A stretch of DNA of 44,769 bases from the IMG/VR virus record IMGVR_UViG_3300032224_000682, positions 1 through 44,769 of that record. One strand, written 5' to 3'. A program made the position numbers and the translations under genes. How positions within the stretch are numbered: position 1 is the stretch's first letter; each line of letters begins with the position of its first letter. The notes beneath the pieces were generated by a model. The model had not been told where the DNA came from. It saw only the letters and a program-made list of their open reading frames with translations, and searched no databases. Positions 1,776-42,911 of the stretch are shown in pieces. This stretch comes from a virus (lineage: Duplodnaviria > Caudoviricetes).

Positions 1776-4700
1776 ATGGGACTTTTCGACGATCTTCTTG
1801 AGGAAGATAATATACAGACTACTCCGAAGCGCAATGGCTTATTTGATGATCTTCTTGAAGAAGATGACCTTACTTCCAATCAACATCCCGTTGTTGATGA
1901 TTACTTTACTCCACGGCAAATAGCTACTGATAAATCAGAAAAAGATAAATCATTTTTTGGAGTTTTAGATACTGCGTCTGCAATTGGAGAGGCTGCATCT
2001 GATCTTATAACTGGAGTTCCTGCGGCTATGAGAAGAGCGAAGGTTGGTCTTATTCGCCCAGATCAATATAGTCCAGAAGATGTAATTGCATTTGAGGCTG
2101 AAAGAAAAAGGAACGAACAACTTGAAATTGAGCGTCAGAAAAGAATTTCCGCTGGAGAAGAAACATCTGTTGGTTCAGCAATTAGGGAGGCTGGTAGGAG
2201 TCTTGGATTTACTGCCGCCAATATACTTCCCGCGATGGCTGGTGGAGCTGCTGCTGGAGCTATTGCTGGGGCTGCATTTCCAGCAGCTGAAGTTGCAACA
2301 ATTCCTATTGGAGTAATTGCATCTGGAATTGGAGCGGCTGCTGGGTCTGCTCCAGTTGCATACAGAATGGCTGGAGCGCAATTTTTGGATGATGCATTCA
2401 ATCAGCTTGAAAGCAATTCTCTGAAGAAAAACAATAGACCATTAACAGAAGAAGAGAAGGATGCCGCATACAAAGAACTACTTCCAATAGCTCAAAATAC
2501 TGGAATATGGGAAGCTGGACCGGAGGCTGTTGGTAATGCTGTAACATTAGGAGTTGGTAAGTTTGTATTTGGATTCGGGAAAGAAGTTGCAACTGGCATT
2601 GCATCTAATGCAATTAAATCAGCTACAAAAACAATTGGTAAGAAAGTTATAGAAAAGGGAGCCGCAATAGCTGGTGATTTAGCTGTTGAACTTGGTGGTG
2701 AAACAATTACTCAAACACAGCAAGGGTATGATGATGCAAAGGCACAACAATATATTAAAACCGGTAGCACAGCTGGTGCTGTTGATGAATATAAAGGGTT
2801 AGCTGGGTTGGGAAAAGCCTTCAAAGAAATAGCTCCTGCAACAATAGCCACAATGGGATTAATGGGTGCAGTTGCCGGAGGAGCTAAACTAGCATCAAAA
2901 CCATTTTCAAATAAAACGGAAACTGGAGAGGAAGAAAAAAACAATAATGCTGAAAATACAGCGATTGGAGGAGCTATAATTACTGATAATTTAAATAGAA
3001 ACAATTCTCCAGAAACAGCAAGGGCAATACAAGATTTAGCGGCAAATGAACTTTCAGATCAACTTGAGAGTGACTTTGCATCACAACAAGCAGCAGCCGC
3101 TGCACAACAACAACAAAAAAATGCCACTAAAGAAATCATCAAGCCAGAAGGCGTTCGTGAAGAACCTCAAAACGGAACTGAAACACAACCGACCAATGAA
3201 ACAATCGCTCGCCATCGCGTATTCAATCCAGAAGGAAGCAAAGAAAAAGAACAAATAGAGTCAGGAGTTAAGCTCAAAGACGCTTGGTATAATAGGGAGA
3301 TCAACAATCTCTCCTCTCTTTCTGGCCTCTCTAATCAAAGCGTGCATTCTGCTATGCTCCCTGGCATCCAGAATAGCGAGGTTCTCAAGTCTATTGTCAC
3401 ATTTATTCCCGTTGATGTGATGAATGACCTCAGGGTAAGAAACATCCCTGCCGATGAACTCCTCAACAACCCAGATATGCTCAGGGATACTCTTTCCTCT
3501 GATAGTAATAATGACATATTTAGAGGGGTCGTTGGTGCGCTTGGATCGGGAGTAGCAGGATTGAGAACAGAACTTCTTGGAAGACTTGGAAGGAATGACC
3601 TTGAAGGTGCAGCCGCATTGATTGCAGGATTTAAGAATCCCTCCAGTCTTGCGTCTTTTCTTGCTCAAGACGACATTCCTAAATTTACTTCCTCTGTTCC
3701 AGCAGAGTTTACCAACGCACTCTCTAGAGCAGCATCTAGCGGTCTTCTCCCTGTAGGGTCTGACGCTGAAAATATTTCCACAAACTTCGCACGACTTTTT
3801 GATTTGACTGAGCATAGTGCTAAATTAAAAACTAAATTTAAAGAAAAGTCAATAAGCAATCGCATACAAAAAACAAAAAGCGAAGAAGAAAGGCAAATAG
3901 CCAGAGACATTGTAAGCGAGCTGCAGGCTGTATCAAACAATACCGCTACAAACGAGCAGATTGCCCGTCTATCGATGGATGGACTCGTAGATGTCCGTAG
4001 AGGCCAAGCCATCATCAACGAGGACGGAGAGGGCATCCTCGCGCAAGCACAAGCCCCATTGCCAAAGCTCACTCCAGAAGCAAGAGCGGCTGAAGTTGAA
4101 GCTGTAACTGCACCAGAACTAATGCAAAATGGAGTGATTAGAACTCCACTAAAGGGAATTACAGGATCACAACAAGAAATAGAAGATAAGACTTTATTTA
4201 AAAATCAAATTCTATCGTTACCTGATGGAAGTGTTATTGTAACCGATCCAGATGTTACGGGATTAGCGCGACAAGTTCGTGTATCAAAAATAGGTAATGA
4301 GGTGTGGCTTGAAGACGCTAAAACCGAACAGTTGATTTGGAAGCCTGGTTTAAATGAAGGCGCGATTCTTGATATGAAAGGGGGAGTAATAAAAGCTCCC
4401 GCGATCACTAATACTGTGTCCGAACAACCTATCATTGGAGAAAAACCACAAGTTTCTCCGATAGTAGGCGATCAAGTTACAGATACAACTCCAGTAGAAC
4501 AAGTTGCTGAAACTCAAATCGCAGAAGAACCTATCATCTCGGAAAAACAACAAACTTCTGAGATAGTAGGCACTGAAACTGCTGCACCCGAAGTTTCTGC
4601 TATTAAACCACAAGTTCAAGTTACAAATATTGATTCACTAATAGATCAAGGTGGTGGAACTGTAGCAGTTCAAGAAGATGGGAGAGATGTAAAATTCAAA

Positions 4701-7700
4701 CAATTTGGTATTGGAATTGACGGCAATACGGCAGAAATAGCATTTGTTGAACTTGATCCTTCTGAACAAGGAAAAGGCATAGGAATAGAAGCGTATCGTT
4801 CATTAGGAAGTGAGTTAGCTGCTCGTGGAATTATTTTAAGAAGTAGTGGAGCGCAATATGGGCCCGGTCATAACCTTTGGTTAAAATTAGCAAAAGAGGG
4901 GTTAGCAAAAAGAGTGGGGCAGCGTTATCAGTTTGTCGCACCCGCCGAGCCAACTGTCAACCAACAGTTGACGGTTCCTCCTACACAAGCTGCACCAATT
5001 GAAAAATTAAAATCAACTTCTCCTGAATCGCAATTATATATTGATTGGATAAACGAACAAATTGAATTAGGTGCTAAAATTTATCAAGGAACTCCCAATG
5101 AAAGAGCATTGACTCTTGATGATGTTGTAAAGGTATCGCAGTTAAAGACTGGGGCTATTCCAAATACAACAGAAAATTCATTAAAATACGGAGGTTTAGG
5201 AATTGGGAATCAAATCAGTAAATTGATTCAATCAGATTCAAGACTCCAAGGTAGAAATAATTTTGAAATAAAAAATCAAATTGAAACTGGATTATATTCT
5301 GGTAGGGGAATAGAGATTTCTGCTATTGAACCAGTTGCTACAATCGCTCCAGAACCAGTCACCGCGCCAGTAGCAGAACCTTCCCAAACGGGAATAACAC
5401 GGCCTGCCATAGCCGCCGAAGAACAAGTTGTTACCGAGCTGGAAGCTGCACCAGCAGAAGTTCCCGCGCCAGAGGTTGCGCCTAAAGCTATAAAAGATTA
5501 CGCAACTGGAGATGTTAATACTCCATTTTATTTTGAAAATGATTCTTGGAATGTTGATGAATCACGACTTAAAAGCGGTGATGAGGTAATTGAAACTTCA
5601 GACGGCCCAGCCGTATATTCTCGCGCTAATGACGGTAAAGTTACGGCAATTGGAGTAAACGCAAATGGTCGCCAAGTTTATATTGGTGAATCGTCCAATT
5701 CTTTCATGCCGTCTGATTATTCAAATGTTCCAGTTAGTGAAATGTTTTCCGCATTAAAAGGATCACGCACTTATGAATCTGATAGGGCTGGAGATTTATT
5801 TCCAGTAATAGACCAAAAAACAGCAGAAAAACTTATTTCAAAATACCCTCCAACCAATCCCGCCCCCGCAGTATCGGAAACAATAACAGAGCCAGCAGCT
5901 CAACCTACTCCAGCAACTCAACCGGAAGGCATAGCAGTAGGCAACCGAATCAAGTTAGGCAAGAGTCCACAGACATACACCATCGAAGAAGTAATCCCGC
6001 AGACAACAACAGAGAGAGATTTGGGCGAGCAGTATTACTCTGTAAAAAACGAGCGCACGGGCGAGGTACAGGTAGTGGAGGCAATGGATTTGAAGAAGGT
6101 TGGAGGTAAGAGAGCGCGGAAAATGACTGCTTCTACTCCACAGCAAACGCTTTGGTCAATTCCTCAACAAGAAATCTCAAGTGCTGCTACATCAATTAAT
6201 CAGAGCAAAATGCCAGCTACATTTAAGAATGTTAAATGGGAGTCTGGAACAAGAAATGCAGATATTGGCGGAGGAAGATTTGATAATGCAACTGAATACT
6301 TAGCAGGTCTTGGAACGGAAAATGTTATTTACGATCCATATAATCGCAGCCAAGAATCAAATCAAATTGCTGTATCAAAAATATCTGGAGGGCAATCAGA
6401 TACCGCTACAATAAATAATGTTCTTAATGTTATTGCTGAACCAGAATCACGCGACCTTGTTATTCGTCAAGCAGCAGATGCAATAAAGCCAGATGGTAAG
6501 GCTTACTTTTTAATTTACGAAGGAAGCTCAAAAGGGGTTGGATCACAAACTAAATTTGGATGGCAAGAAAATAGAAAAGCAGAAACATATATTGCTGAAA
6601 TTAAAAACCACTTTGGAAATGTAACGCGAAAAGGAAATCTTATTATTGCTGAAAATCCAGTAAAAACAAAAGAACCATTGCGTCAAGCGGCAGAATTTAA
6701 AAACGAGGAAATAGTCACGCCAATTCCAGAAGCAAATCGCTACACATACGAAGAAGCTGTAAGGCTAGTTGACTCCTACTTCGACAAAGAAGGAATACCG
6801 GAAGGCATTGTTATCGTAAATAATACTACTGATCCAGACCTTGAGATGAAGGCTGGATACTTCGTAGATCGTGGACAGATCGTGATTAACCTTGCGTATA
6901 TCGCTAAAGGCGAGAGCCTATCTGACATTATCTCACACGAACTTGGTCATTTCATATTTAGTGATCCGCAGTTCCAAGCTGACTTCAAAGCATTCTGGGA
7001 CTTGATGACACCAGAGGAGCAGGCTGATGCAGATAGAATCATCAATCAATTTTACAATAAAGAAACTGGAGCAATCCAGATGGAGGAGAAACAAGTCCGC
7101 GCATTCATGCAGTTGATCCAAGACAGCAAAGCAATGCCGAAGTGGAGGCAAATTCTGGACAGCATCAAGCGTTGGATTAACAAGTATCTTAAAACAAATT
7201 TTCAAGTAACTGACAGAAACGCATTGGCAGTCCTTGCTGCCGCACATAAACGATTTAAGAGTGGTGAGCGCATCATCCGTGAGATTGATTCTGGAGTACT
7301 GAAGACAGCAGATACGGCACAGGATGCGGAGTATCTTGCAGCGGTTGAGCGTGGAGACATGGAGACTGCACAAAGGATGGTGGATGAAGCGGCAAGGAAG
7401 GCTGGATACAATAGCCCAATGGTTTATCATGGTTCTTCAGATAAACCATTTAATATTTTTAAAACAAAGCGCGGTAAAAAAGGAACAAGAGAAGGCGGTG
7501 CATTTTTTACCCCAACAGAAACATTGGCTAACTATTTTGCAGAAATTTCTCAACAAGTAAAATATGGAGGGATTACAGATAAACCTGGTATAATTTACAA
7601 GGCATATCTTAAAATGGATAATCCTGTTGTAATTGACCAAAAGTTTGAAAATGTAGGTTCAATAGAAGATAAGAACATAAATAGAATCAAAGCTGCAAAG

Positions 7701-10700
7701 AAATATGGTTTTGATGGAATCATATGGAAGAACACAATTGAACCATTTCATCCAGATGGAGTAGATCAATATATTGTATTTTCTTCAGAACAAATCAAGT
7801 CATCAGACCCAGTAACCCGTGATGATCAAGGTAATGTAATCCCACTCTCCCAAAGATTCCGCACTACCTCGCAAGACATCCGCAGAATGGCAGCAGAGCC
7901 TCGCCGCGAGCAAGTTGCTGGAATGGAACGTGGAGACATTATTACAACTCCAGAAGGAATTATTAAGCAAACCAACGAAGTATTGCGTAATAAGTTCTTC
8001 GATGGATCAGAAGTATCTGATGAGGCTACTTTAAATGCATGGAACTACATAGAGCAAATGTTAGATATTAAATCTGGCGCAGCCAATGCTCTTGCAGGAC
8101 AGATTAACGATGTTGCAGATCAAGAAACAAATTCGGATACAAGAATGGGAGCGAGTTTATTCTCTGTGTCGCTTGCAAATTATGCCGCAAAGTTGGCTGC
8201 TCAAGGTGATACTACGATGATTTCCTATCTTATCCGTAGGATTAATCGTATGCCTATTGATAACCTTGCTGGAGGAATAAGCAAAGCTGCTGAGGCAATG
8301 AGAGCGAAAAGAGAATACAATATTGATGGATTCAATACGCTTAAAACTGAAGGGAAATCTAAAGTAGAAAGAACAGCAGCGGCATTGTTTGGCACAGACA
8401 AACCAGGCGAAGATCAAGTAAAGGCTGTTGATGATGCAATTAAAGCATCAGAGGATACACCTATTGGAGAGCCTGAAGAAGTTTCCGCTGAAATTGAAAA
8501 AGTAGAGAATAGGACAGGGCGTAAAGTAATCAAGGCTATCGATGATAAGATCAAAGAAAATATTGAAGGACGCAAAAATCTTGCACTTGAAAAGCAAAAA
8601 AGCAGACCAAGAACTCCTTATGGAGTAGAAGGACAAGCACAATCAATTATAAATCAATTCTCAACATTATTGAGCGATGTTCCAACATTTACAGAGAAAC
8701 AAGAAAATCGCATTAGAACTATTGTTCAACAAGACTTGAGGCAGAGGCCAGATATGAAACGCAAGCAACCATGGACAAGCCAACTGACGGCAAAGCTTAT
8801 TGATGCTGGTGTTGATGAGGCGCAGGCTCAAATAATTTCTGATCTTGTATGGAGACAGCATGAGATCAAAACAATGGATCGTGAGCTTAAGGAGTTTCAA
8901 ACAGCAGCAGAGAAAGGTTCTCTTACAGTCATTATCCAACGCATCAAAGATACACCTATTGAGCAGCAGCAGAAGCCAGGTTGGATGCAAGGCGTTATTC
9001 GTGAATATTTAATTGGTTCTGGACTATCGAGTAAAGCGGCAGACACGGCAGCAAGACTATATGAAAGCGTAATTTCAGAAAGATTGGCTGAAGCAAAGCA
9101 AAAGGCATTTAATGAAACACTTTCTAAATCTGCTCCGTGGAATAACTATCTATCCAGAAATAGCAGACTCGGAAAAGATGCATTAAAGAAAATTCAAGAC
9201 GCAATCAGAACTGGTGTTCTTGATCCAACGCAAAATGTTGAAAGCATTATTGCAAAAGAAAATGGGTGGTCTGGTTTTTCTAAAGAACAATTGCAGCGGA
9301 TCGTTCAATTGGATAATGTTATTTCTAATCCAGATACTGATGAGGTTACAAAAGCAGAATCAATGCATGAGCTTAACTCAATTATTGTTAAAGCAAAAAT
9401 GCCAGTAAGATTTAAAGATGCGATTGGAGCCTACTATGTTGGTCAGGCGCTTATGGGTATTCCGACATTGACTGTTAACATAGCATCGCCTATTGGGTTC
9501 TCAGTTAGAAATCTTATTTCAGACATTGGGCGTTACTCGTTTACGGAACCATCAAGAATCCCAATGGCATTTGAGACATTCTTGGATAGTATGAAGTCAT
9601 GGTATAACCAAACATCATACGCATTTAAAAACCAAATATATCTAAACGATGTAGTTGAATATCTTAATGGTCAGAATGTTCTTCGTGAGTTGTTTGATAA
9701 AGGAAAGGCTCAGTGGGCTAAAGGTGAATATGCAAGTGGAATGGTTAATATGCTTGTTGGTATGACGCAAATTACTGGGCGTGTCTTAGCGTCTTTGGAT
9801 CAAGGTGCTATTTCAATGTTGGAGAATCAAAACATTAGCCGATACGCAATGGAGGCAATGAAGCAAAAAAACATTCCGCAAGCGAGACGCAAGGAAATTG
9901 CTAATATGATTCTTGATACGCGAAGAAGAACATACGCTGAAAGCATTGCCGCAGGAATGGAGAAAGATCGATCTGGTGTTTTAGCAGATATGGCAGTCCG
10001 AACTGAAATTGCAGAGGCACTTGCACCAGAAGGAATTAATTTCAAAAACGTATTGGATTCTGCAATTAATGACTCGCTTCAAGCTGTTGGAAGGAACAAA
10101 ACAATTGATACAAAAGGAATTGTTGAAGAGAGTAAAAGGCTTTCAGATGCTGGAATGTTGTCTTATTTGCCAATTGAGTTTCTTCAAAAGATAGCATCTG
10201 GAGCAGCTAATAGTGGACCTCTTATGCAAGTATTTTCAAAAATGCTTTATGGATTTGCACTTGTGCCTGCAAGGGTATTCCATACTACAGCTTGGTATTC
10301 TCCATATGGATTTATCCGACTTGGAATTGATAAGTATAAAAAGAACAAAGGCGAAGAGTCTCCGTATGCAATGAGCTTGCAAACAGACTTGCAATACAAG
10401 CAAAGATTAACAGATGCTATTGCCGGATCAATTGTTATGCTTGGATTGGCTGCACTTGCAAGTGGCTCTGCTGATGATGATGACGATAAAAAGTTCAAAA
10501 TTGTTATTACTGGAAACGGTCCAAGTTATACAGCGGACAGACAATATTTTGATTCTTGGAACAAAAAGTGGAAGCCATACAGCATCCATATTGTTATGGG
10601 AGATACAATTATTCCAATAAATATTGGAAGAGGTGGCGAGGCATTATTCTTCCCTATAATGCTTGCTGGTGCATTAGATGATTGGGGAATTAAAAAGAAA

Positions 10701-11423
10701 TTGAATCTCACAAAGAAAACTCCAGAAGACCTTAATTTCGCTGTAGAAGCACTGGGTTCAGCGTTCTTTGCTCTGGCTCAAAGAGGTCCATACGCCGCAT
10801 TCACAAGACCATTGTTTGACGCTTCTAAGGAAGGCAAGATTACCGAAGAGCTTGTTGGTCAAGCTGGGTTCTTTGGTAAAACATTTGTTCCAATATTGGG
10901 GGCATCAGTTGCAAGAAATATATCTGACTTCATCAATGATCCGGTTGATAGGTCTTCATTGGAAGGAGCAATCTATGCCAACACCCCTGTTATTGGCCCA
11001 TGGATGGGTACTAAGGCGCTTAATGCTCTTGGACAACCAATCAGGGCGGATGACTGGGGTGACAAGCTATACAAGCTTGGAGTTCCAGTTGCGTTCTCAT
11101 TTCCTAAAAATACTCCAGAGAATGAACTAAATGAATTGATTCTTAAAAAAGGAGGGGGTCCGTCTATTCCTACAAGATCAAATGCACAGAAGCGACTTGG
11201 TGATGTTATGACAGATAAAGAGTTTGAAACATATGTTCGTGAATATGGACGTGTTGTATCAGACAAGATGTTTAAAAATCGAAAGAAGCTTGAAAATATG
11301 TCAGTTAAAAACTATGATGATGAACTTCAAAAATATGTTACTGGATATTCAATTGACGGAATCAAAGTCACCGGAGCTTCTGATATGGCAGTTCGCGCTG
11401 TAAAGCGATCAAGAAACCAATGA
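1776..11423 (+). CDS. Giant polyvalent virion (ejection) protein with GNAT-like, SAM-methyltransferase-like, HExxH metallopeptidase and ADP-ribosyltransferase-like domains
   Basis: 3215 aa; duplicated GLFDDLLEED at N-terminus; Gly/Ala hydrophobic segments; ELDPSEQGKGIG (GNAT, ~4750); ADIGGGRFD..YDPYNR..NNVLNVI (MTase, ~6260-6430); SHELGH (~6935); VYHGS..GAFFT..GFDGII..YIVFSSEQIKS (ART-like, ~7420-7800). Confidence 0.8.
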   Translation: MGLFDDLLEEDNIQTTPKRNGLFDDLLEEDDLTSNQHPVVDDYFTPRQIATDKSEKDKSFFGVLDTASAIGEAASDLITGVPAAMRRAKVGLIRPDQYSPEDVIAFEAERKRNEQLEIERQKRISAGEETSVGSAIREAGRSLGFTAANILPAMAGGAAAGAIAGAAFPAAEVATIPIGVIASGIGAAAGSAPVAYRMAGAQFLDDAFNQLESNSLKKNNRPLTEEEKDAAYKELLPIAQNTGIWEAGPEAVGNAVTLGVGKFVFGFGKEVATGIASNAIKSATKTIGKKVIEKGAAIAGDLAVELGGETITQTQQGYDDAKAQQYIKTGSTAGAVDEYKGLAGLGKAFKEIAPATIATMGLMGAVAGGAKLASKPFSNKTETGEEEKNNNAENTAIGGAIITDNLNRNNSPETARAIQDLAANELSDQLESDFASQQAAAAAQQQQKNATKEIIKPEGVREEPQNGTETQPTNETIARHRVFNPEGSKEKEQIESGVKLKDAWYNREINNLSSLSGLSNQSVHSAMLPGIQNSEVLKSIVTFIPVDVMNDLRVRNIPADELLNNPDMLRDTLSSDSNNDIFRGVVGALGSGVAGLRTELLGRLGRNDLEGAAALIAGFKNPSSLASFLAQDDIPKFTSSVPAEFTNALSRAASSGLLPVGSDAENISTNFARLFDLTEHSAKLKTKFKEKSISNRIQKTKSEEERQIARDIVSELQAVSNNTATNEQIARLSMDGLVDVRRGQAIINEDGEGILAQAQAPLPKLTPEARAAEVEAVTAPELMQNGVIRTPLKGITGSQQEIEDKTLFKNQILSLPDGSVIVTDPDVTGLARQVRVSKIGNEVWLEDAKTEQLIWKPGLNEGAILDMKGGVIKAPAITNTVSEQPIIGEKPQVSPIVGDQVTDTTPVEQVAETQIAEEPIISEKQQTSEIVGTETAAPEVSAIKPQVQVTNIDSLIDQGGGTVAVQEDGRDVKFKQFGIGIDGNTAEIAFVELDPSEQGKGIGIEAYRSLGSELAARGIILRSSGAQYGPGHNLWLKLAKEGLAKRVGQRYQFVAPAEPTVNQQLTVPPTQAAPIEKLKSTSPESQLYIDWINEQIELGAKIYQGTPNERALTLDDVVKVSQLKTGAIPNTTENSLKYGGLGIGNQISKLIQSDSRLQGRNNFEIKNQIETGLYSGRGIEISAIEPVATIAPEPVTAPVAEPSQTGITRPAIAAEEQVVTELEAAPAEVPAPEVAPKAIKDYATGDVNTPFYFENDSWNVDESRLKSGDEVIETSDGPAVYSRANDGKVTAIGVNANGRQVYIGESSNSFMPSDYSNVPVSEMFSALKGSRTYESDRAGDLFPVIDQKTAEKLISKYPPTNPAPAVSETITEPAAQPTPATQPEGIAVGNRIKLGKSPQTYTIEEVIPQTTTERDLGEQYYSVKNERTGEVQVVEAMDLKKVGGKRARKMTASTPQQTLWSIPQQEISSAATSINQSKMPATFKNVKWESGTRNADIGGGRFDNATEYLAGLGTENVIYDPYNRSQESNQIAVSKISGGQSDTATINNVLNVIAEPESRDLVIRQAADAIKPDGKAYFLIYEGSSKGVGSQTKFGWQENRKAETYIAEIKNHFGNVTRKGNLIIAENPVKTKEPLRQAAEFKNEEIVTPIPEANRYTYEEAVRLVDSYFDKEGIPEGIVIVNNTTDPDLEMKAGYFVDRGQIVINLAYIAKGESLSDIISHELGHFIFSDPQFQADFKAFWDLMTPEEQADADRIINQFYNKETGAIQMEEKQVRAFMQLIQDSKAMPKWRQILDSIKRWINKYLKTNFQVTDRNALAVLAAAHKRFKSGERIIREIDSGVLKTADTAQDAEYLAAVERGDMETAQRMVDEAARKAGYNSPMVYHGSSDKPFNIFKTKRGKKGTREGGAFFTPTETLANYFAEISQQVKYGGITDKPGIIYKAYLKMDNPVVIDQKFENVGSIEDKNINRIKAAKKYGFDGIIWKNTIEPFHPDGVDQYIVFSSEQIKSSDPVTRDDQGNVIPLSQRFRTTSQDIRRMAAEPRREQVAGMERGDIITTPEGIIKQTNEVLRNKFFDGSEVSDEATLNAWNYIEQMLDIKSGAANALAGQINDVADQETNSDTRMGASLFSVSLANYAAKLAAQGDTTMISYLIRRINRMPIDNLAGGISKAAEAMRAKREYNIDGFNTLKTEGKSKVERTAAALFGTDKPGEDQVKAVDDAIKASEDTPIGEPEEVSAEIEKVENRTGRKVIKAIDDKIKENIEGRKNLALEKQKSRPRTPYGVEGQAQSIINQFSTLLSDVPTFTEKQENRIRTIVQQDLRQRPDMKRKQPWTSQLTAKLIDAGVDEAQAQIISDLVWRQHEIKTMDRELKEFQTAAEKGSLTVIIQRIKDTPIEQQQKPGWMQGVIREYLIGSGLSSKAADTAARLYESVISERLAEAKQKAFNETLSKSAPWNNYLSRNSRLGKDALKKIQDAIRTGVLDPTQNVESIIAKENGWSGFSKEQLQRIVQLDNVISNPDTDEVTKAESMHELNSIIVKAKMPVRFKDAIGAYYVGQALMGIPTLTVNIASPIGFSVRNLISDIGRYSFTEPSRIPMAFETFLDSMKSWYNQTSYAFKNQIYLNDVVEYLNGQNVLRELFDKGKAQWAKGEYASGMVNMLVGMTQITGRVLASLDQGAISMLENQNISRYAMEAMKQKNIPQARRKEIANMILDTRRRTYAESIAAGMEKDRSGVLADMAVRTEIAEALAPEGINFKNVLDSAINDSLQAVGRNKTIDTKGIVEESKRLSDAGMLSYLPIEFLQKIASGAANSGPLMQVFSKMLYGFALVPARVFHTTAWYSPYGFIRLGIDKYKKNKGEESPYAMSLQTDLQYKQRLTDAIAGSIVMLGLAALASGSADDDDDKKFKIVITGNGPSYTADRQYFDSWNKKWKPYSIHIVMGDTIIPINIGRGGEALFFPIMLAGALDDWGIKKKLNLTKKTPEDLNFAVEALGSAFFALAQRGPYAAFTRPLFDASKEGKITEELVGQAGFFGKTFVPILGASVARNISDFINDPVDRSSLEGAIYANTPVIGPWMGTKALNALGQPIRADDWGDKLYKLGVPVAFSFPKNTPENELNELILKKGGGPSIPTRSNAQKRLGDVMTDKEFETYVREYGRVVSDKMFKNRKKLENMSVKNYDDELQKYVTGYSIDGIKVTGASDMAVRAVKRSRNQ
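3121..3258 (+). CDS. Small basic phage protein (MPLKK-type) nested in an alternative frame of the giant gene
   Basis: MPLKKSSSQKAFVKNLKTELKHNRPMKQSLAIAYSIQKEAKKKNK resembles a recurrent small phage protein pattern (MPLKK..S..N..E..P.KQA.AIA.S, recalled not searched); A-rich sequence before the ATG. Confidence 0.7.
   Translation: MPLKKSSSQKAFVKNLKTELKHNRPMKQSLAIAYSIQKEAKKKNK
3261..3815 (-). CDS. Zn-finger HNH endonuclease (homing-endonuclease-like) nested antisense in the giant gene
   Basis: Two CxxC...CSxxC modules (CEVC..CSREC, CNQC..CSQSC), then EHIWVVE..VIHHINGNKCDNRLENL..EHSRMH. Confidence 0.9.
   Translation of the reverse strand: MLSQIKKSCEVCGNIFSVRPYREKTARCCSRECVGKLCWNRGSKFRNVVLSKKRRKTGGILKSCNQCGCTFKVIPSKSSKKFCSQSCYSRSKRTNDPSKYVIITIRGKSIPEHIWVVEEFIGRDVSYPEVIHHINGNKCDNRLENLAILDAREHSRMHALIREARKRGEIVDLPIIPSVFELNS
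3824..3852 (-). promoter_or_regulatory. Sigma70-like promoter for the antisense HNH gene
   Basis: Minus strand TTGACT-17 nt-TTTAAT-8 nt-ATG(3815), lying in coding sequence of the giant gene. Confidence 0.65.
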
Positions 11424-27038: not shown

Positions 27039-27500
27039 ATGGCATCACCAGACAGAAATTTTGCAAACTCAGCTATTTTTACACAGACAGCAACCGGCAC
27101 AACCCCTAATGCTGGAGACAACTCTTTGTACTTCAAATCAGATGATAAGGTTTATTCCAAAAACTCCAGTGGTGTAGAAACGCCTATATCTTCAAATGGT
27201 GCAACTGGAGCCACTGGGATTGCTGGTGGACAAGGTTCCACTGGCGCAACAGGAATTGGAGCAACTGGCTCTACTGGGGCAACTGGTATTGGAACTCAAG
27301 GAGCGACTGGTAGCACAGGAGCTACAGGCGTAACTGGAGCAACTGGAGCAACTGGAGTTACACCAGCAAATATTGTTTTGTCTGATATAACTGGGCTAAC
27401 GGGGGCAACTCAGTTGACCAATGTTGTGCAAATTACACTAGCGGGATATTTGTTAATTGGGACTCCAAATGTGAACACGCTTTATGTAATCGTAGGATGA
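27039..27500 (+). CDS. Short collagen-like fibre protein
   Basis: GAT/GST triplets; C-terminal [10 protein letters not shown]. Confidence 0.75.
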
Positions 27501-28618
27501 AATTAACCAATTCTAGCGCAGCTAATGTTGGATTAAGTGTTGTTAGATGTATCGCATCTTCAACAACACTCTTCCGTAATTTTATGGTCTATGCCGCAAC
27601 AACCATTTCGTCGGTTATTTCTGGCGCAATTGGGTTAATTAAAAATGGCACAGGAACTCTTATAACTACCTCAACCAACACCTACACGGGGGGAACTATT
27701 GTTAATGCTGGCACGTTTCAAATAGGAAATGGCACAAATGTTACGGCAAGAGTTTTAAATACCACAACCTTAAGCGGAGGCAACCTTGCTTACAATTTCA
27801 ACGCAAACAACAATGCAGTAAATGGATCAATCACGCTTACTGCAACTGCTACTATAACAAAATTAAATGGATTGTATCAGATCAACTTACAAACAGGCAC
27901 TCTAAATGGTGGAGGGCAGACATTGAATATTTTTGTGGATACAACTGCTGGTGTAGCACCACTTTATTTTAACGGGACGGCTGGAACCAGTTTGAGTCAA
28001 ATAAATATCCTTAATGGTGCTGTAGGGCAAGACGGAACAGGTGGATTACCGCTGCGGAACGCCACGATAAATGTATCGAGCGGGGCGCAATTTAGGACTT
28101 ATACCAGTCCGACGATCAACAATAATTTTACGCTTAACGGCGGAGCTGGGCCAAATGGCAATGGAGTCTTGTGGAATGAGTCTATCGTTGCTGCTCATAC
28201 TCCAATTTATATCGGCACGATCACTTTGGCTACTGGGACAAACTCAAGCGTTGGAAATACGACTTCTGGATTTACTATAACTGGACAAATAACTGGGGCA
28301 GGTTCATTTACAAAAATTGGAACTGGATTACTCTCTACTTACAACAATAATAATAACTACACTGGATCAACAACAATTAGTGCAGGGACGTTAATGGTAA
28401 TTAAAGCATTCGGCGCGATAACTCCTACAGCATCGTTTACCTCAACAACACTTTCCGTTTCTTTTTCTGGAACATTACCAATAGGCACAACAAATTTTAG
28501 ATTCTTCCAGGGCATTACAACTAACGCATACGCTTCAGTAACTTTAATTGGCGTTCCTACTGGGACAACATCAGTATATACGTCAGCAACATCAACGCTT
28601 ACAGTAATAGTGCCATGA
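27497..28618 (+). CDS. Beta-helical protein with autotransporter passenger-associated repeats; putative receptor-binding protein
   Basis: [28 protein letters not shown] and [24 protein letters not shown]. Confidence 0.7.
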
Positions 28619-33644: not shown

Positions 33645-34043
33645 TTAATCTTTCTTCAATAGTTCCTCTACGATTTGTTCAGCTACGTCATGCAGCGATG
33701 GGTATGCGAGCATATTGAATGACTTTCCATGCTTTTCAATAAATGCTTTCCAATCTCTGTGTTCAGCTTTAGTGAGCTTTGTTTGGTATGGTCTTGCCTC
33801 TCCAGCCTTACGGATGATTCCCATTATGCTGTCAGCCTTGTTGTGCATGGCAGCTTGGATTTCAGCTCGATCTGGATAGACACACTGCCGGATGCTGGTG
33901 CAGCCTGGTGCTATCTTAACGAGCCAGTAGCCTTCATCAAGGCCATGGTATGCGTTTGGATCATTGACTTGGATATATCGCTTCCCAACTTTGCGGTAGA
34001 GTATATCTGACTCTACTTGCGCTATGCGTGTTTGTGCGTTCAT
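33645..34043 (-). CDS. Hypothetical protein
   Basis: Start set at MNAQTR (34043), 9 nt after a promoter -10. Confidence 0.6.
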   Translation of the reverse strand: MNAQTRIAQVESDILYRKVGKRYIQVNDPNAYHGLDEGYWLVKIAPGCTSIRQCVYPDRAEIQAAMHNKADSIMGIIRKAGEARPYQTKLTKAEHRDWKAFIEKHGKSFNMLAYPSLHDVAEQIVEELLKKD

Positions 34044-34093
34044 GCAAAAAACATCTTGCACTAAATGTAGTGGCGTGTCAATATCTGGTTTCC
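34044..34093. promoter_or_regulatory. Overlapping symmetric divergent promoters with inner palindrome
   Basis: Plus TTGCAC-17-CAATAT-9-ATG; minus TTGACA-17-CAAGAT-9-ATG; CACTA-aatg-TAGTG in the shared spacer. Confidence 0.6.
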
Positions 34094-34267
34094 ATGAAAC
34101 ACACATTCATTCACCTTGGCTGCGAGGTTAAGATCGCAGGTAACGATGTCACAATCTATCGGCAAGATGGAGGTATTGATAAGATCAAATTAAAGTTGAT
34201 CCATGATCAAGACACAGCAGAAGAGTTCGTCAAGGACTACATCACGCTCAGTATTGTTAAACAATAA
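34094..34267 (+). CDS. Small hypothetical protein
   Basis: 57 aa MKHTFIHLG... Confidence 0.55.
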   Translation: MKHTFIHLGCEVKIAGNDVTIYRQDGGIDKIKLKLIHDQDTAEEFVKDYITLSIVKQ

Positions 34268-34282
34268 ACCAGAAAAACACTA

Positions 34283-35716
34283 ATGTGGATACTACCATCA
34301 CAACTCTTGAAATGTGCGCCGGATATGGAGGCATTGGACTTGGAATCAAAAACATCTTTGGCGAGCGATTGCGAACCATTGCATATTGTGAGCTTGAGGG
34401 GTTCGCTCAAGCCAATCTCATCAGTAAGATGGAAAAAGGACTCTTGGATGCAGCACCTATATGGAGCGATCTTAAAACCTTTCCATACGAATCGTTTCAC
34501 AGACTGGTGGACATCCTCATTGCGGGATACCCATGTCAGCCATTTAGCGCAGCAGGAAAGCGAGCAGGTAAAGAAGACCCAAGACATCTTTGGCCTTGGA
34601 TCGCAGACGGAATTCGACTTCTTCAACCAAGAATGTGCTTCTTTGAAAACGTCGAAGGACACATCTCGTTGGGACTCTCAACAGTCATCAGTGATCTGGA
34701 AGAACTGGGTTATAAAAGTTCGTTCGGAATATTCAGTGCGAGTGAAGTTGGCGCAGTCCACCAAAGGAAAAGAGTGTTTATCATGGCCCACCGCAACGGC
34801 GAGGGATTTTGCAGGGAAAAGTGGTTCTGGCAGGCAGGGGCGCAAGGGGCATCCAGCGGATACTCTACCGAATGCGGTAGCTCAATGGCCGACACCAACA
34901 GCAGGAGAATGTCTGGATCAAGGAACGAATTGGGAAACGCTGGCGAGGCTGGACAAGGGTGGTCGAATACTTCGCAGGATGGCATCATTGGAAATGTCTG
35001 GCCATCACGCCCCGGTCAACCACAATACGCATGGGAACCGCCAAGGGTCGTGGCTAACTCCAAACACGATGGACTCACTTCCTGTCAGATCGGAGGAAGC
35101 ACTTGCGAGACAATACCAGAAAAACAGATTTGGGAGGACAACTCACTCAACATTGAGAGAGCAAGTTGCATTGCCACCACCAAGTCAGATGGCATGGGCA
35201 ACTCCTCGCAGTTGTTCTGCTATGGCAGCAACAATAACAGAGGAATCAGTGAACAAGGAGAACAGATTCCCGAATCTAGAAACTCAAGTTGGGAGGCAGC
35301 AATGGGCAACGCCAAGAGCAGGGAAAACAACGGACGAGAATCCAGAGACATGGCTGAAGCGTCAAGCCAACGGGGATGTTGCGACGATGCCACTAACGGC
35401 GCAAGTGAAAGTGAAACAATGGGCAACGCCACGAATAGGCGGCGAGGAAAAAGCGGAGACGAGACTTGCGAGGGGGCGGGAAATTGGACTTCACGGACAA
35501 GTGGGAGCAATGACGAACTCAGCAAAACTCAACAGCCAATGGGTTACTCAACTCATGGGGCTGAATCTCGGTTGGGTATCTCCGAGCTGTCCGGCCTCAG
35601 TGATTCTGAATTGGCCGAAATTCGTGAGTGGATGGTGCGCTGCGACAACAGAACAGATGAACTGCGATTGCTCGGCAATGGAGTTGTCCCGGCAACAGCA
35701 ACCAGAGCTTTTCTGA
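34283..35716 (+). CDS. Overlapping-frame methyltransferase partner (beta-like) with motif IX and six WxTP-type repeats
   Basis: 477 open codons; WPTAT, WPTPT, WLTPN and three WATPR; KLNSQWVTQLMGLNLGW resembles motif IX. Confidence 0.75.
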   Translation: MWILPSQLLKCAPDMEALDLESKTSLASDCEPLHIVSLRGSLKPISSVRWKKDSWMQHLYGAILKPFHTNRFTDWWTSSLRDTHVSHLAQQESEQVKKTQDIFGLGSQTEFDFFNQECASLKTSKDTSRWDSQQSSVIWKNWVIKVRSEYSVRVKLAQSTKGKECLSWPTATARDFAGKSGSGRQGRKGHPADTLPNAVAQWPTPTAGECLDQGTNWETLARLDKGGRILRRMASLEMSGHHAPVNHNTHGNRQGSWLTPNTMDSLPVRSEEALARQYQKNRFGRTTHSTLREQVALPPPSQMAWATPRSCSAMAATITEESVNKENRFPNLETQVGRQQWATPRAGKTTDENPETWLKRQANGDVATMPLTAQVKVKQWATPRIGGEEKAETRLARGREIGLHGQVGAMTNSAKLNSQWVTQLMGLNLGWVSPSCPASVILNWPKFVSGWCAATTEQMNCDCSAMELSRQQQPELF

Positions 35717-35739
35717 CACTATTGGAGAAACTAAAATGA
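34285..35739 (+). CDS. C5 cytosine DNA methyltransferase, catalytic (alpha-like) polypeptide lacking motif IX
   Basis: Motif I CAGYGG, IV GYPCQPFS, VI FENV, VIII QRKRVFI, X LLGNGVVP; GTG start. Confidence 0.85.
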   Translation: MDTTITTLEMCAGYGGIGLGIKNIFGERLRTIAYCELEGFAQANLISKMEKGLLDAAPIWSDLKTFPYESFHRLVDILIAGYPCQPFSAAGKRAGKEDPRHLWPWIADGIRLLQPRMCFFENVEGHISLGLSTVISDLEELGYKSSFGIFSASEVGAVHQRKRVFIMAHRNGEGFCREKWFWQAGAQGASSGYSTECGSSMADTNSRRMSGSRNELGNAGEAGQGWSNTSQDGIIGNVWPSRPGQPQYAWEPPRVVANSKHDGLTSCQIGGSTCETIPEKQIWEDNSLNIERASCIATTKSDGMGNSSQLFCYGSNNNRGISEQGEQIPESRNSSWEAAMGNAKSRENNGRESRDMAEASSQRGCCDDATNGASESETMGNATNRRRGKSGDETCEGAGNWTSRTSGSNDELSKTQQPMGYSTHGAESRLGISELSGLSDSELAEIREWMVRCDNRTDELRLLGNGVVPATATRAFLTLLEKLK

Positions 35740-35915
35740 GCAAAGAACAGAAAGTATGGCTTGCACTTCAGTCTGCAAAGACAGATATTATTCTTGCAAT
35801 TGCTGACTACAAGAAACCAGATCGTGCTGCTTGTAAGGATTGGATAAACCAAGCGACATCAAGGCTGATGGAAGCTTACGCTTTACTGCGTGAGGACGGA
35901 GGATACGAGCTTTAA
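35736..35915 (+). CDS. Small hypothetical protein (59 aa, absent from ORF track)
   Basis: MSKEQKVWLALQSAK..., ATGA overlap with the methyltransferase. Confidence 0.55.
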   Translation: MSKEQKVWLALQSAKTDIILAIADYKKPDRAACKDWINQATSRLMEAYALLREDGGYEL

Positions 35916-35926
35916 CTAAAAATACT

Positions 35927-36565
35927 ATGATTGTAATGCCATCAAACAATAGCGGCATCCAAGTTGGATACATGGCAGGTAAATATCAAGGCAGGATTGG
36001 TTGGTTGTTGTCTCCAGATGGATGGATTAAGCCGCCTTCTTGGATGCCATATGCCATAGACAATGGAGCGTATCCAGCTTGGGCAAACAACGTGCCGTGG
36101 AATGAAGATAAATTCTTAAATCATTTAGAAAAAACAAAAACAGCACCAAAAAAACCATTGTGGGTTGTTGTTCCAGATGTTGTAACTGATAAAGAAGCTA
36201 CTATTGCTAAATGGATTCCTTGGGCTAGACAAATTCGTGAAATATTATTTAATGTTCCTCTTGCTTTTGCGGTGCAGGATGGAATGACAAAGTCAGATGT
36301 TCCATCAGATGCAGAAGTTATATTTGTTGGAGGATCAACAGAATGGAAATGGAAGAACCTTTACGAATGGACTTCAAACTTTAAGCGAGTTCACGTTGGC
36401 AGGGTTAACTCTGAAAGACTTCTTTGGATGGCACACGAAGCTGGAGCAGAATCTTGTGACGGCACAGGATGGGTTCGTGGAGGAGAAGAACGATTAGAGG
36501 AACTACACAGGTATCTTCAACAATCGACAGGTGGAGATAATAGACCGCAATTACAATTTTTATGA
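35927..36565 (+). CDS. TGT-fold DpdA-like 7-deazaguanine DNA transglycosylase
   Basis: Collinear TGT/DpdA-like motifs DNGAY, VPDVV, VQDG, FVGG, VHVG, SCDGTGW; adjacent to QueF-like and QueD genes. Confidence 0.7.
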   Translation: MIVMPSNNSGIQVGYMAGKYQGRIGWLLSPDGWIKPPSWMPYAIDNGAYPAWANNVPWNEDKFLNHLEKTKTAPKKPLWVVVPDVVTDKEATIAKWIPWARQIREILFNVPLAFAVQDGMTKSDVPSDAEVIFVGGSTEWKWKNLYEWTSNFKRVHVGRVNSERLLWMAHEAGAESCDGTGWVRGGEERLEELHRYLQQSTGGDNRPQLQFL

Positions 36566-36804
36566 ACATATACGAAATTACGCATCGGGCAGAATGCCCA
36601 AATGGAAAATTGATTGATACATACAAAATCAAGATAACAAGTCACAATACAATTATCGTTGAGGAACTAATAAATATATTGGAAAATTCTCCAAAACAAA
36701 TCTATCAAGAAGACCTAGCAGATTATCTTCGCGCAAAACTTGGGGCAATGGTAGAGATTGTCGGCTGGCATTACGGAATAAAAATAATCTGCATCAGGGA
36801 ATGA
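36562..36804 (+). CDS. QueF-like (QueF-L) T-fold protein
   Basis: CPNGKLIDTY..IIVEEL..IYQEDLA..GWHYGIKI parallels the QueF-L CP..D..IEE..HEELA pattern. Confidence 0.6.
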   Translation: MNIYEITHRAECPNGKLIDTYKIKITSHNTIIVEELINILENSPKQIYQEDLADYLRAKLGAMVEIVGWHYGIKIICIRE

Positions 36805-37148
36805 AAACCACAATATTCAAAGAGTTTAAATTTAGTGCAGCACACAATCTAACAGTGGATGGTCATACATGCTCAAAACTGCATGGACATAATTACAAAG
36901 TAAGAATAGAATTGTCTGGTAAAATGGATGCAAGTGGAATGATTTTAGATTTCTCAGAAATCAAAAAAAGAATACAGCCGATAATAGATAAATTAGACCA
37001 CTCGTATTTGAACGAAATTATCATACTGCCAACTACATCCGAGAATATTGCTTCATGGATTTTTACTCAATCAAACAATCAGTTAGGATGTGTTGCAAAG
37101 GTAACGCTATGGGAAACTGAATCATGTGGAGCAATAGTAACATTTTGA
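36801..37148 (+). CDS. queD: 6-carboxytetrahydropterin synthase
   Basis: FSAAH, CSKLHGHNY, LDHSYLN, TSENIA, LWET. Confidence 0.9.
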   Translation: MKTTIFKEFKFSAAHNLTVDGHTCSKLHGHNYKVRIELSGKMDASGMILDFSEIKKRIQPIIDKLDHSYLNEIIILPTTSENIASWIFTQSNNQLGCVAKVTLWETESCGAIVTF

Positions 37149-42296: not shown

Positions 42297-42911
42297 ATGC
42301 ACTACGCGCTAAATGCTCCCGTTCCACAACACATCTACGGATATGTAGAGAAAAAAATCTTGTTTGGACTTGATGATGTTGAAGGCTACGAGCCTTGCGT
42401 AATCATTGGAGTTACGTCAATACCTGGGCGAGCGTTACACTTCTCTATTCTTTGCGAAAGCGGAGCGCAGTGGGCAAGGATTCCGATTCATTGCGTATTC
42501 CACAGGATACCATGCTGCGACGAGAAGCCCTTGTATGAGGTTTTTGACCTTCAAATGTGGGATTGTATGGGTTTGGAGTTTAGTGTTGTTCAATACACGT
42601 ATTTCAGAGAGATGTCCTGCACCTTCAGAAACAGAGAAGGCAAGAATGTTCCGGCTCAGTATTGGTTCACCTTGGATCACACCGATAATGGGTTCAGCCT
42701 ATCCCCAACACAGCACAAATGTTTTCACTTACTGAAATGTAATGATGGGTCAGGTCAAATCGCAGCAATGCCTAATAATCGGATTGTGTGGCATGATCCA
42801 TCGTTCGTTAGGCATGGTGATGTTCCTAAGTATAAGGTGATGGCAGATGTAACCTGGCACTGCGAACAACAAGAACTTGACAATCCGCACGATACGGCAT
42901 TTACTGAATGA
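42297..42911 (+). CDS. Conserved phage hypothetical protein
   Basis: SIPGRAL, LQMWDC, HKCFH, AAMPNNRI. Confidence 0.65.
   Translation: MHYALNAPVPQHIYGYVEKKILFGLDDVEGYEPCVIIGVTSIPGRALHFSILCESGAQWARIPIHCVFHRIPCCDEKPLYEVFDLQMWDCMGLEFSVVQYTYFREMSCTFRNREGKNVPAQYWFTLDHTDNGFSLSPTQHKCFHLLKCNDGSGQIAAMPNNRIVWHDPSFVRHGDVPKYKVMADVTWHCEQQELDNPHDTAFTE

Follow-up and report, generated by a model that had tools for sequence, protein, structure and literature searches.

One 1.4-kb phage gene is confirmed to be open and conserved from end to end in two reading frames, and the two chains that these frames encode, likely from adjacent starts, are predicted on comparative sequence evidence to form one orphan cytosine-5 (C5) methyltransferase, a reading to which we give a rough probability of 0.8. 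The gene lies in a tailed-phage genome (with terminase small subunit, tail fibre, endolysin, Erf, and replication proteins), and "the window" hereafter means the whole 44,769-nt stretch of DNA that was analysed. The first-pass annotation of this DNA had described a near-whole-gene overlap with overlapping start codons, and this description holds: the two ORFs, alpha and beta, overlap on the same strand by 1,432 nt and their starts overlap as ATGTG. They show interleaved conserved frames, complementary motif content, and adjacent starts. The features of the gene are as follows.

34260..34287, + strand: A-rich leader ending in the overlapping starts ATGTG (beta ATG, alpha GTG)
34283..35716, + strand: beta ORF, ATG start, 477 aa, +1 frame relative to alpha; the proposed partner chain
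34283..34783, + strand: beta N-terminal region (aa 1-167), under the alpha catalytic motifs, with site-specific constraint
34285..35739, + strand: alpha ORF, GTG start, 484 aa; C5-methyltransferase catalytic chain with motifs I-VIII, filler, and motif X
34315-34332, + strand: alpha motif I, within the motif block 34315..34782
34522-34548, + strand: alpha motif IV with the catalytic PC
34642-34659, + strand: alpha motif VI
34762-34782, + strand: alpha motif VIII
34784-34885, + strand: beta module 1, W-P-T-x type; beta-frame selection (4 relatives)
34886-34993, + strand: beta module 2, W-P-T-x type; beta-frame selection (3 relatives)
34999-35046, + strand: alpha conserved element WPSRPGQPQYAWEPPR (WP..P...WEPPR), in the middle of the beta array; alpha identity 0.88 versus beta 0.56 (24 loci)
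35051-35194, + strand: beta module 3; beta-frame selection (1-2 loci); omitted exactly by a contig of run X2
35195-35302, + strand: beta module 4; beta-frame selection (1-2 loci); omitted exactly by a contig of run X2
35303-35419, + strand: beta module 5; beta-frame selection (1-2 loci)
35420-35527, + strand: beta module 6; beta-frame selection (1-2 loci)
35528-35575, + strand: beta motif IX-like block LNSQWVTQLMGLNLGW, containing LNSQWVTQLMG; family consensus LNPRWVETLMGLPxGW
35665-35691, + strand: alpha motif X-like block RLLGNGVVP; alpha identity 0.90 versus beta 0.44 (27 loci)

Alpha contains what identifies a C5 methyltransferase, namely motifs I-VIII (in the established numbering), the catalytic Pro-Cys, and ENV. 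Its PF00145 match (E 1.8e-29) is limited to residues 6-173, and M.HhaI matches it both in sequence (E 5.6e-10) and, in a Foldseek comparison with the alpha model, in fold (E 7e-12). Together with RLLGNGVVP, the PF00145 match bears out the earlier claim that the frame opening at GTG 34285 carries motifs I-VIII and X. The variable region, motif IX, and motif X do not lie together in one chain as they do in single-chain enzymes: the motif IX-like block and the modules are in the +1 frame and the X-like block is in alpha. Neither the sequence nor the model of alpha revealed a motif IX-like block or a folded variable region. The model is confident for the core and a C-terminal helix, and residues 189-435 are mostly of low confidence and without structure; the middle of the chain has few hydrophobic residues (0.14-0.18), and over every module its conservation falls below that of beta. 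The low-complexity middle reported by the first-pass annotation is a poorly conserved filler joining conserved blocks, except for the one conserved element at 34999-35046.

Beta had been described as a second frame of 477 codons from ATG 34283 with a motif IX-like block, and both the coordinates and the block stand, but the chain holds more than motif IX: a constrained N-terminal third and an array of six modules (W-x-T-P/A type) precede the block. The only match of beta is phrog_1008 'DNA methyltransferase' (E 2.8e-15), and 1,197 homologues were found among 8,000 candidates scored. No family was detected in Pfam, NCBIfam, or PADLOC, and comparison with PDB sequences gave no match (one chance-level match with the single sequence and none with a profile). 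Modelled alone, beta gave a poor model (pLDDT 54, pTM 0.26), for which no fold match was found among solved structures, and its Atlas neighbours are unnamed clusters only. Constrained sites in the N-terminal region include the M-W-I-L-P start, W55, L59, P66, W76, V143, R147, and R153, and the profile of this region matches nested +1 ORFs in phages MM1, Diva, Estave1, JKSyngboy, and C75C1. The block LNSQWVTQLMGLNLGW is called motif IX-like by its position and visible resemblance; in Estave1 gp75 and JKSyngboy gp4 such a block stands directly before motif X in the main frame, and the motif IX profile had no match at E<1 in E. coli Dcm or two plasmid single-chain enzymes.

Chance openness of both frames is excluded. 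For comparison, the +1 frames of 22 other long ORFs in the window contain 479 stops in 10,685 codons (one per 22), the longest open run being 131 codons. With the amino acids of alpha and the codon usage of the window fixed, the probability of no +1 stop is 10^-4.0 over residues 1-172 and 10^-6.8 over 476 codons, and with the amino acids of beta fixed, the probability that alpha stays open over beta residues 168-430 (the modules) is 10^-10.7. Relatives were gathered in three sets: 37 viral loci from an alpha query, the best 80 of at least 567 bacterial-genome matches to two alpha-only patterns, and 79 viral loci from a beta alignment; removal of 24 duplicates and 6 truncated loci left 166. At least 85% of alpha is covered by an open +1 frame in 31/31 non-truncated viral loci of the alpha query, in 74/77 non-truncated bacterial-genome loci (from the best 80 of at least 567), and in 58/58 viral loci of the beta query, a set biased by its query; by the same measure, the +2 frame is open in 0/31, 1/77, and 0/58. 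In Dcm and two plasmid enzymes, taken as single-chain controls, the +1 frame contains 8-28 stops. The first-pass annotation had proposed checking whether both frames stay open in homologues, which they do in 163 of the 166 distinct non-truncated loci, from many assemblies and with 58 coming from the beta query. The combination of a motif IX profile match in the +1 ORF and a motif X in alpha occurs in 29/36, 55/78, and 58/58 distinct loci, most of the remainder having an open +1 frame without a detectable motif IX match. The three loci that break the pattern (L046, L088, and L118) are all among the 77 bacterial-genome loci. An early stop in alpha or beta, or motif IX or X in another frame, was seen in these three and in L110, L114, and L044; these may be damaged copies or reflect insertions or a moved split point.

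Selection alternates between the frames along the gene. When the window was compared with 36 close loci for the most variable codon position, the frame under selection followed the order alpha, beta, alpha, beta, alpha. Beta-frame selection was found over the modules, each resting on 1-4 relatives, and over the motif IX-like block (3 loci). Over beta residues 1-167 variability follows alpha, with an identity of 0.81 for alpha versus 0.61 for beta (35 loci). Codon usage in 49 representatives under 80% identity reveals a further constraint in this region: alpha A152 is GCG in 48/49, which preserves beta R153; alpha P58 is CCT in 44/47, which preserves beta L59; and alpha G142 is GGT in 41/48, which preserves beta V143, whereas other Ala, Pro, and Gly columns of alpha use all four codons. 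The +2 frame control of the codon analysis shares third positions and is not independent, and a fourfold-site comparison was binned on the region that it measures, so weight is placed on the site-specific codon fixation alone. The N-terminal third of beta is constrained beyond being stop-free. Open frames, alternating selection, and codon fixation lend good support to the M.EcoHK31I-like two-chain reading that had been offered for this gene.

Natural rearrangements provide controls. In one relative (L031, 626-1621), whose motif X is in the beta frame, alpha is only 208 aa long, ending just past the WP element, and the following 124 alpha-frame codons contain 9 stops; since stops accumulate once motif X has moved, it seems that the alpha filler is otherwise held free of stops only so that motif X can be reached in the same chain. 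In another (L032, 2963-5217), beta is open for 717 codons across an insert of ~330 aa at the alpha catalytic cysteine, and the insert ends intein-like (C...HN/C). Among named phages, in Estave1 gp75 the main frame holds two modules along with motifs IX and X; in Lunsford the modules, IX, and X are in +1; in JKSyngboy IX and X are in the main frame and the modules in +1; Diva and C75C1 have a layout resembling that of the window, and MM1 has a nested ORF homologous to the beta N-terminus. The modules, IX, and X move between frames as parts of one enzyme.

The start region had been read as one initiation site where the choice of start codon would set the stoichiometry of the two chains, which is a conceivable mode of control here. 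No Shine-Dalgarno match was detected in the leader (34260..34287), and GTG 34285 is the sole ATG/GTG/TTG in the alpha frame upstream of Met10. Because any Met-Trp start automatically creates a GTG at +2, the GTG within ATGTG is not independent evidence. In the loci with ATGTGG (n=84), the second positions of beta codons 3-5 are fixed in 84, 80, and 79 of 84 and the third positions vary, and therefore M-W-I-(L/I)-P is conserved while the first residues of alpha drift. The start layout could be classified in 165 of 175 distinct loci, and the alpha start adjoins the beta start in all 165. The beta start stands directly before the Trp in 106 of these loci, and the other 59 have a spacer between the beta Met and the Trp; ATGTG is the commonest of several adjacent-start layouts (offsets seen: -4, +2, +5, +8, and +11). 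In 35 of the 59 spacer loci, TGG is preceded by a base that gives an ATG or GTG in the alpha frame, 30 of them using ACA among the four Thr codons with no other start near, and in the other 24, where that base makes CTG or TTG, an alpha start lies just upstream (24/24). On a quick tree of 163 alpha N-terminal domains, the layout has to change 17 times, and branches with strong support make 3 to 5 of these changes unavoidable for each layout; the 24 upstream-start loci fall in one part of the tree, so that the layout counts are not independent. For compensation in the start layout, a Fisher test gave P = 1e-12, a value that shared ancestry inflates and on which no weight is placed. That each chain has its own initiation at one site is supported by the conserved beta N-terminus and the adjacent alpha start, but ATGTG itself is not required, given the other offsets in 59/165 loci.

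The beta modules have the consensus W-(P/A)-T-P-x-A-x-D, and the 144 full two-frame loci together contain 633 of them (1 to 9 in each gene), which form 173 clusters at 60% identity. Modules 1-6 of the window are shared with 7, 3, 2, 3, 12, and 3 other modules, respectively, largely from different loci, and this mosaic sharing indicates that modules have been shuffled between relatives. Tandem exchangeable units between motifs VIII and IX, as in multispecific enzymes, are present here (1-9 modules with mosaic sharing); a single polypeptide, as in such enzymes, is not, the modules and catalytic motifs being in different frames. In Estave1 gp75, such modules stand in the main frame between VIII and IX, i.e., in the variable, recognition region. 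Compared with three single-chain enzymes, the module profile gave a weak and inconsistent signal: its top window in Dcm was the TLSARYYKDG region (only 4.4 bits), which we take to be the recognition loop of that enzyme, and in the Delftia enzyme the top window lay outside the variable region. In the available parts of published accounts, the recognition region of C5 methylases occupies the position where the modules sit (PMC3404938), and Bacillus phage enzymes owe their several specificities to recognition domains arranged in tandem (PMC8936443). It is possible, at odds slightly short of even, that each module is a target-recognition cassette and that the enzyme methylates several sites.

A less probable but serious alternative is a heterodimer in which beta is structural or regulatory, as in M.EcoHK31I, specificity coming from alpha (e.g., from WP..WEPPR) and the modules doing something else, such as protein binding. 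The recognition domain of M.EcoHK31I has been placed in alpha, according to the available portions of two papers (PMC2836561, PMC3404938), the WP element is conserved in most close relatives, and the match of the modules to known recognition loops is weak. The element is nearly invariant, however, while variation and shuffling, as expected of parts that set specificity, are seen in the modules; a pattern for the element missed it in 25 of the 55 full two-frame bacterial-genome loci (from the best 80 of at least 567 matches), and the composition, conservation, and structureless model of the middle of alpha, described above, also speak against this alternative, which agrees with the main reading on the heterodimer and departs from it only in the role of the modules.

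Very unlikely is the double frameshifting mentioned by the first-pass annotation, by which one polypeptide would be made through programmed shifts from alpha (I-VIII) into +1 for the modules and IX and by -1 back to X. Along the DNA the motifs are ordered I-VIII, variable region, IX, X, as in an ordinary single-chain enzyme, with which the product would be colinear. Neither frame, however, needs to be open where it is not read, and frameshifting leaves unexplained why beta is open and constrained under motifs I-VIII and has its own start, and why alpha is open under the modules and collects stops when motif X has changed frame. To include the element within the array that is selected in alpha, four shifts would moreover be required, and the gene's 4 XXXYYYZ heptamers are all out of phase with the beta frame. 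Just as improbable is the idea that beta is an overprinted protein in its own right, whose function is unrelated, alpha working alone or with a host partner. The absence of Pfam, NCBIfam, PADLOC, and PDB matches to beta agrees with this idea, and out-of-frame HNH nuclease genes do occur inside phage methylases (PMC11855218, as far as the accessible part of that report describes); against it, alpha has neither a motif IX-like block nor a folded variable region, and the reference phages shift modules, IX, and X between frames as one enzyme's parts.

Contigs of run X1 match the locus with 0 differences and 0 gaps (33900-34681 and 34683-36200), and within these ranges there are no indels of the kind that, as the first-pass annotation noted, would merge the frames; X1 is possibly the window's own source, and position 34682 is without a formal bridge between its contigs. 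An assembly error is unlikely chiefly because the layout is conserved in relatives, which is a stronger argument than the X1 contigs. The reading as an assembly artefact, or as a decayed single gene with two compensating frameshifts, draws on the colinear motif order and on the possible identity of the only full-coverage run (X1) with the source, but is refuted by the open-frame statistics, the alternating selection, and the same layout in 163/166 loci, given that decay would not keep both frames open. Contigs of run X2 omit exactly module 3 (144 nt) or module 4 (108 nt), and another joins 34269 to 35732 across the whole methylase gene; two joints in run X5 omit 209 and 629 nt, neither a multiple of three (in all these contigs, the letters between are unknown). 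The X2 contig joining both flanks suggests a relative without the gene and an accessory status for the methylase. None of the public runs listed for this sequence is an RNA run, which is neutral as to expression of the gene.

In the two-chain enzyme proposed here, ribosomes would start at either codon within one initiation region, alpha would fold its catalytic domain together with motif X, and beta would bind alpha through its N-terminal region and motif IX, supply the small DNA-recognising domain that alpha lacks, and present a module to the DNA. No restriction-enzyme match was found among the scanned neighbours of the gene, and so it looks like an orphan methylase. Its 5-methylcytosine may protect phage DNA against host restriction, which is an established role of phage orphan methylases in the accessible parts of the literature (PMC8936443, PMC12707154). 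A fuller picture, more tentative than the role of the modules alone, is that of a widespread phage family in which one initiation region and two frames yield a catalytic chain and an equal-length specificity chain, here of six recombining recognition cassettes; the anti-restriction enzyme would be reprogrammed by in-frame cassette exchange that keeps two frames open, and the split point would have moved repeatedly.

Several other observations were made in the window. A QueD-like gene (PF01242, TIGR03367) lies beside genes for a 212-aa protein (phrog_15826; unnamed Atlas neighbours only) and an 80-aa protein (phrog_37496), with phrog_3704 'ferredoxin' further on (35927-37148 and 42297-42911, + strand); judging from QueD, this group may be a 7-deazaguanine DNA-modification set next to the methylase. 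GTAC is strongly under-represented in the whole window (46 seen versus 199 expected) and ACGT, CTAG, and GGCC are also low, which may reflect host restriction sites; as a trace of the alpha-beta enzyme, this bias was rejected because it cannot be tied to the enzyme. The nearest named loci in the alpha N-terminal tree are from Verrucomicrobiota, which is only a hint of the host group, and a protein with passenger-associated transport repeats (PF12951) is encoded at 27497-28618 (+ strand); the repeats and the methylase relatives together presumably hint at this group. A 3,215-aa ORF occupies 1776-11423 (+ strand), with no Pfam match in its first 1,408 residues.

If the two-chain reading is right, the M.EcoHK31I design, treated as a one-off curiosity, would be common in phages and prophages in a whole-gene form. 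This form is annotated as just one of the two proteins (as alpha in C75C1, Estave1, and JKSyngboy), and structural or evolutionary studies of phage methylases based on alpha alone may miss half of the enzyme. The gene would then offer a 1.4-kb same-strand overlap whose two products serve one enzyme and along which selection on each frame can be traced. It would also provide a natural experiment in the choice between start codons only a few bases apart and, possibly, many short DNA-recognition cassettes that can be exchanged.

Known systems share parts of this arrangement. In the literature covered, mostly excluding subscription papers, old scans, and supplements, we found no whole-gene two-frame phage methylase with adjacent starts. 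The actinophage methylases of PMC9957025 and PMC11855218 carry, in the accessible parts of these papers, insertions and a hidden HNH gene, not a partner chain. A second +1 gene inside a C5-methylase gene is known from database annotations of Paenibacillus phage Diva (gp49/gp50, 'g49 internal gene') and Streptococcus phage MM1 (ORF13/ORF14), and from PHROG 363 and 1008; both second genes are homologous to the beta N-terminal region, and Diva gp50 also has three modules and motif IX, but the second frame opens at alpha codon 59 in Diva and at codon 30 in MM1, and in the window at the gene start. The multispecific C5 enzymes of Bacillus phages (SPR and H2), as far as described in the available text (PMC8936443), are likewise orphan, with tandem variable units between VIII and IX to which the window modules are likened by layout; unlike the window enzyme, they are single chains. 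M.AquI also derives its activity from two chains, one with the catalytic and one with the C-terminal motifs (available part of PMC3404938), and this split, with IX and X in the second chain, is seen in L031 and mycobacteriophage Lunsford gp79/78; in the window, unlike M.AquI, motif X stays in alpha, and alpha is thus read through the whole of beta. In M.EcoHK31I (YGGCCR), compared here by published description in the portions available (PMC2836561, PMC3404938), alpha with motifs I-VIII and X needs beta with motif IX, encoded within the alpha gene in another frame, for activity (PMC2836561). The window has the same features, a second chain in the other frame and a split of I-VIII and X versus a IX-like block, and the beta N-terminus, which is constrained in the window enzyme, matters for association in M.EcoHK31I by the same partial account. 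In that account, beta of M.EcoHK31I is the smaller of the two chains and alpha is said to hold the recognition domain, whereas the window has a variable module array in beta and no restriction-enzyme match among the scanned neighbours. A two-chain enzyme is thus known from M.EcoHK31I, and the differences in the window are the whole-gene overlap (1,432 nt), the adjacent starts, the equal lengths of the chains, and the module array of beta.
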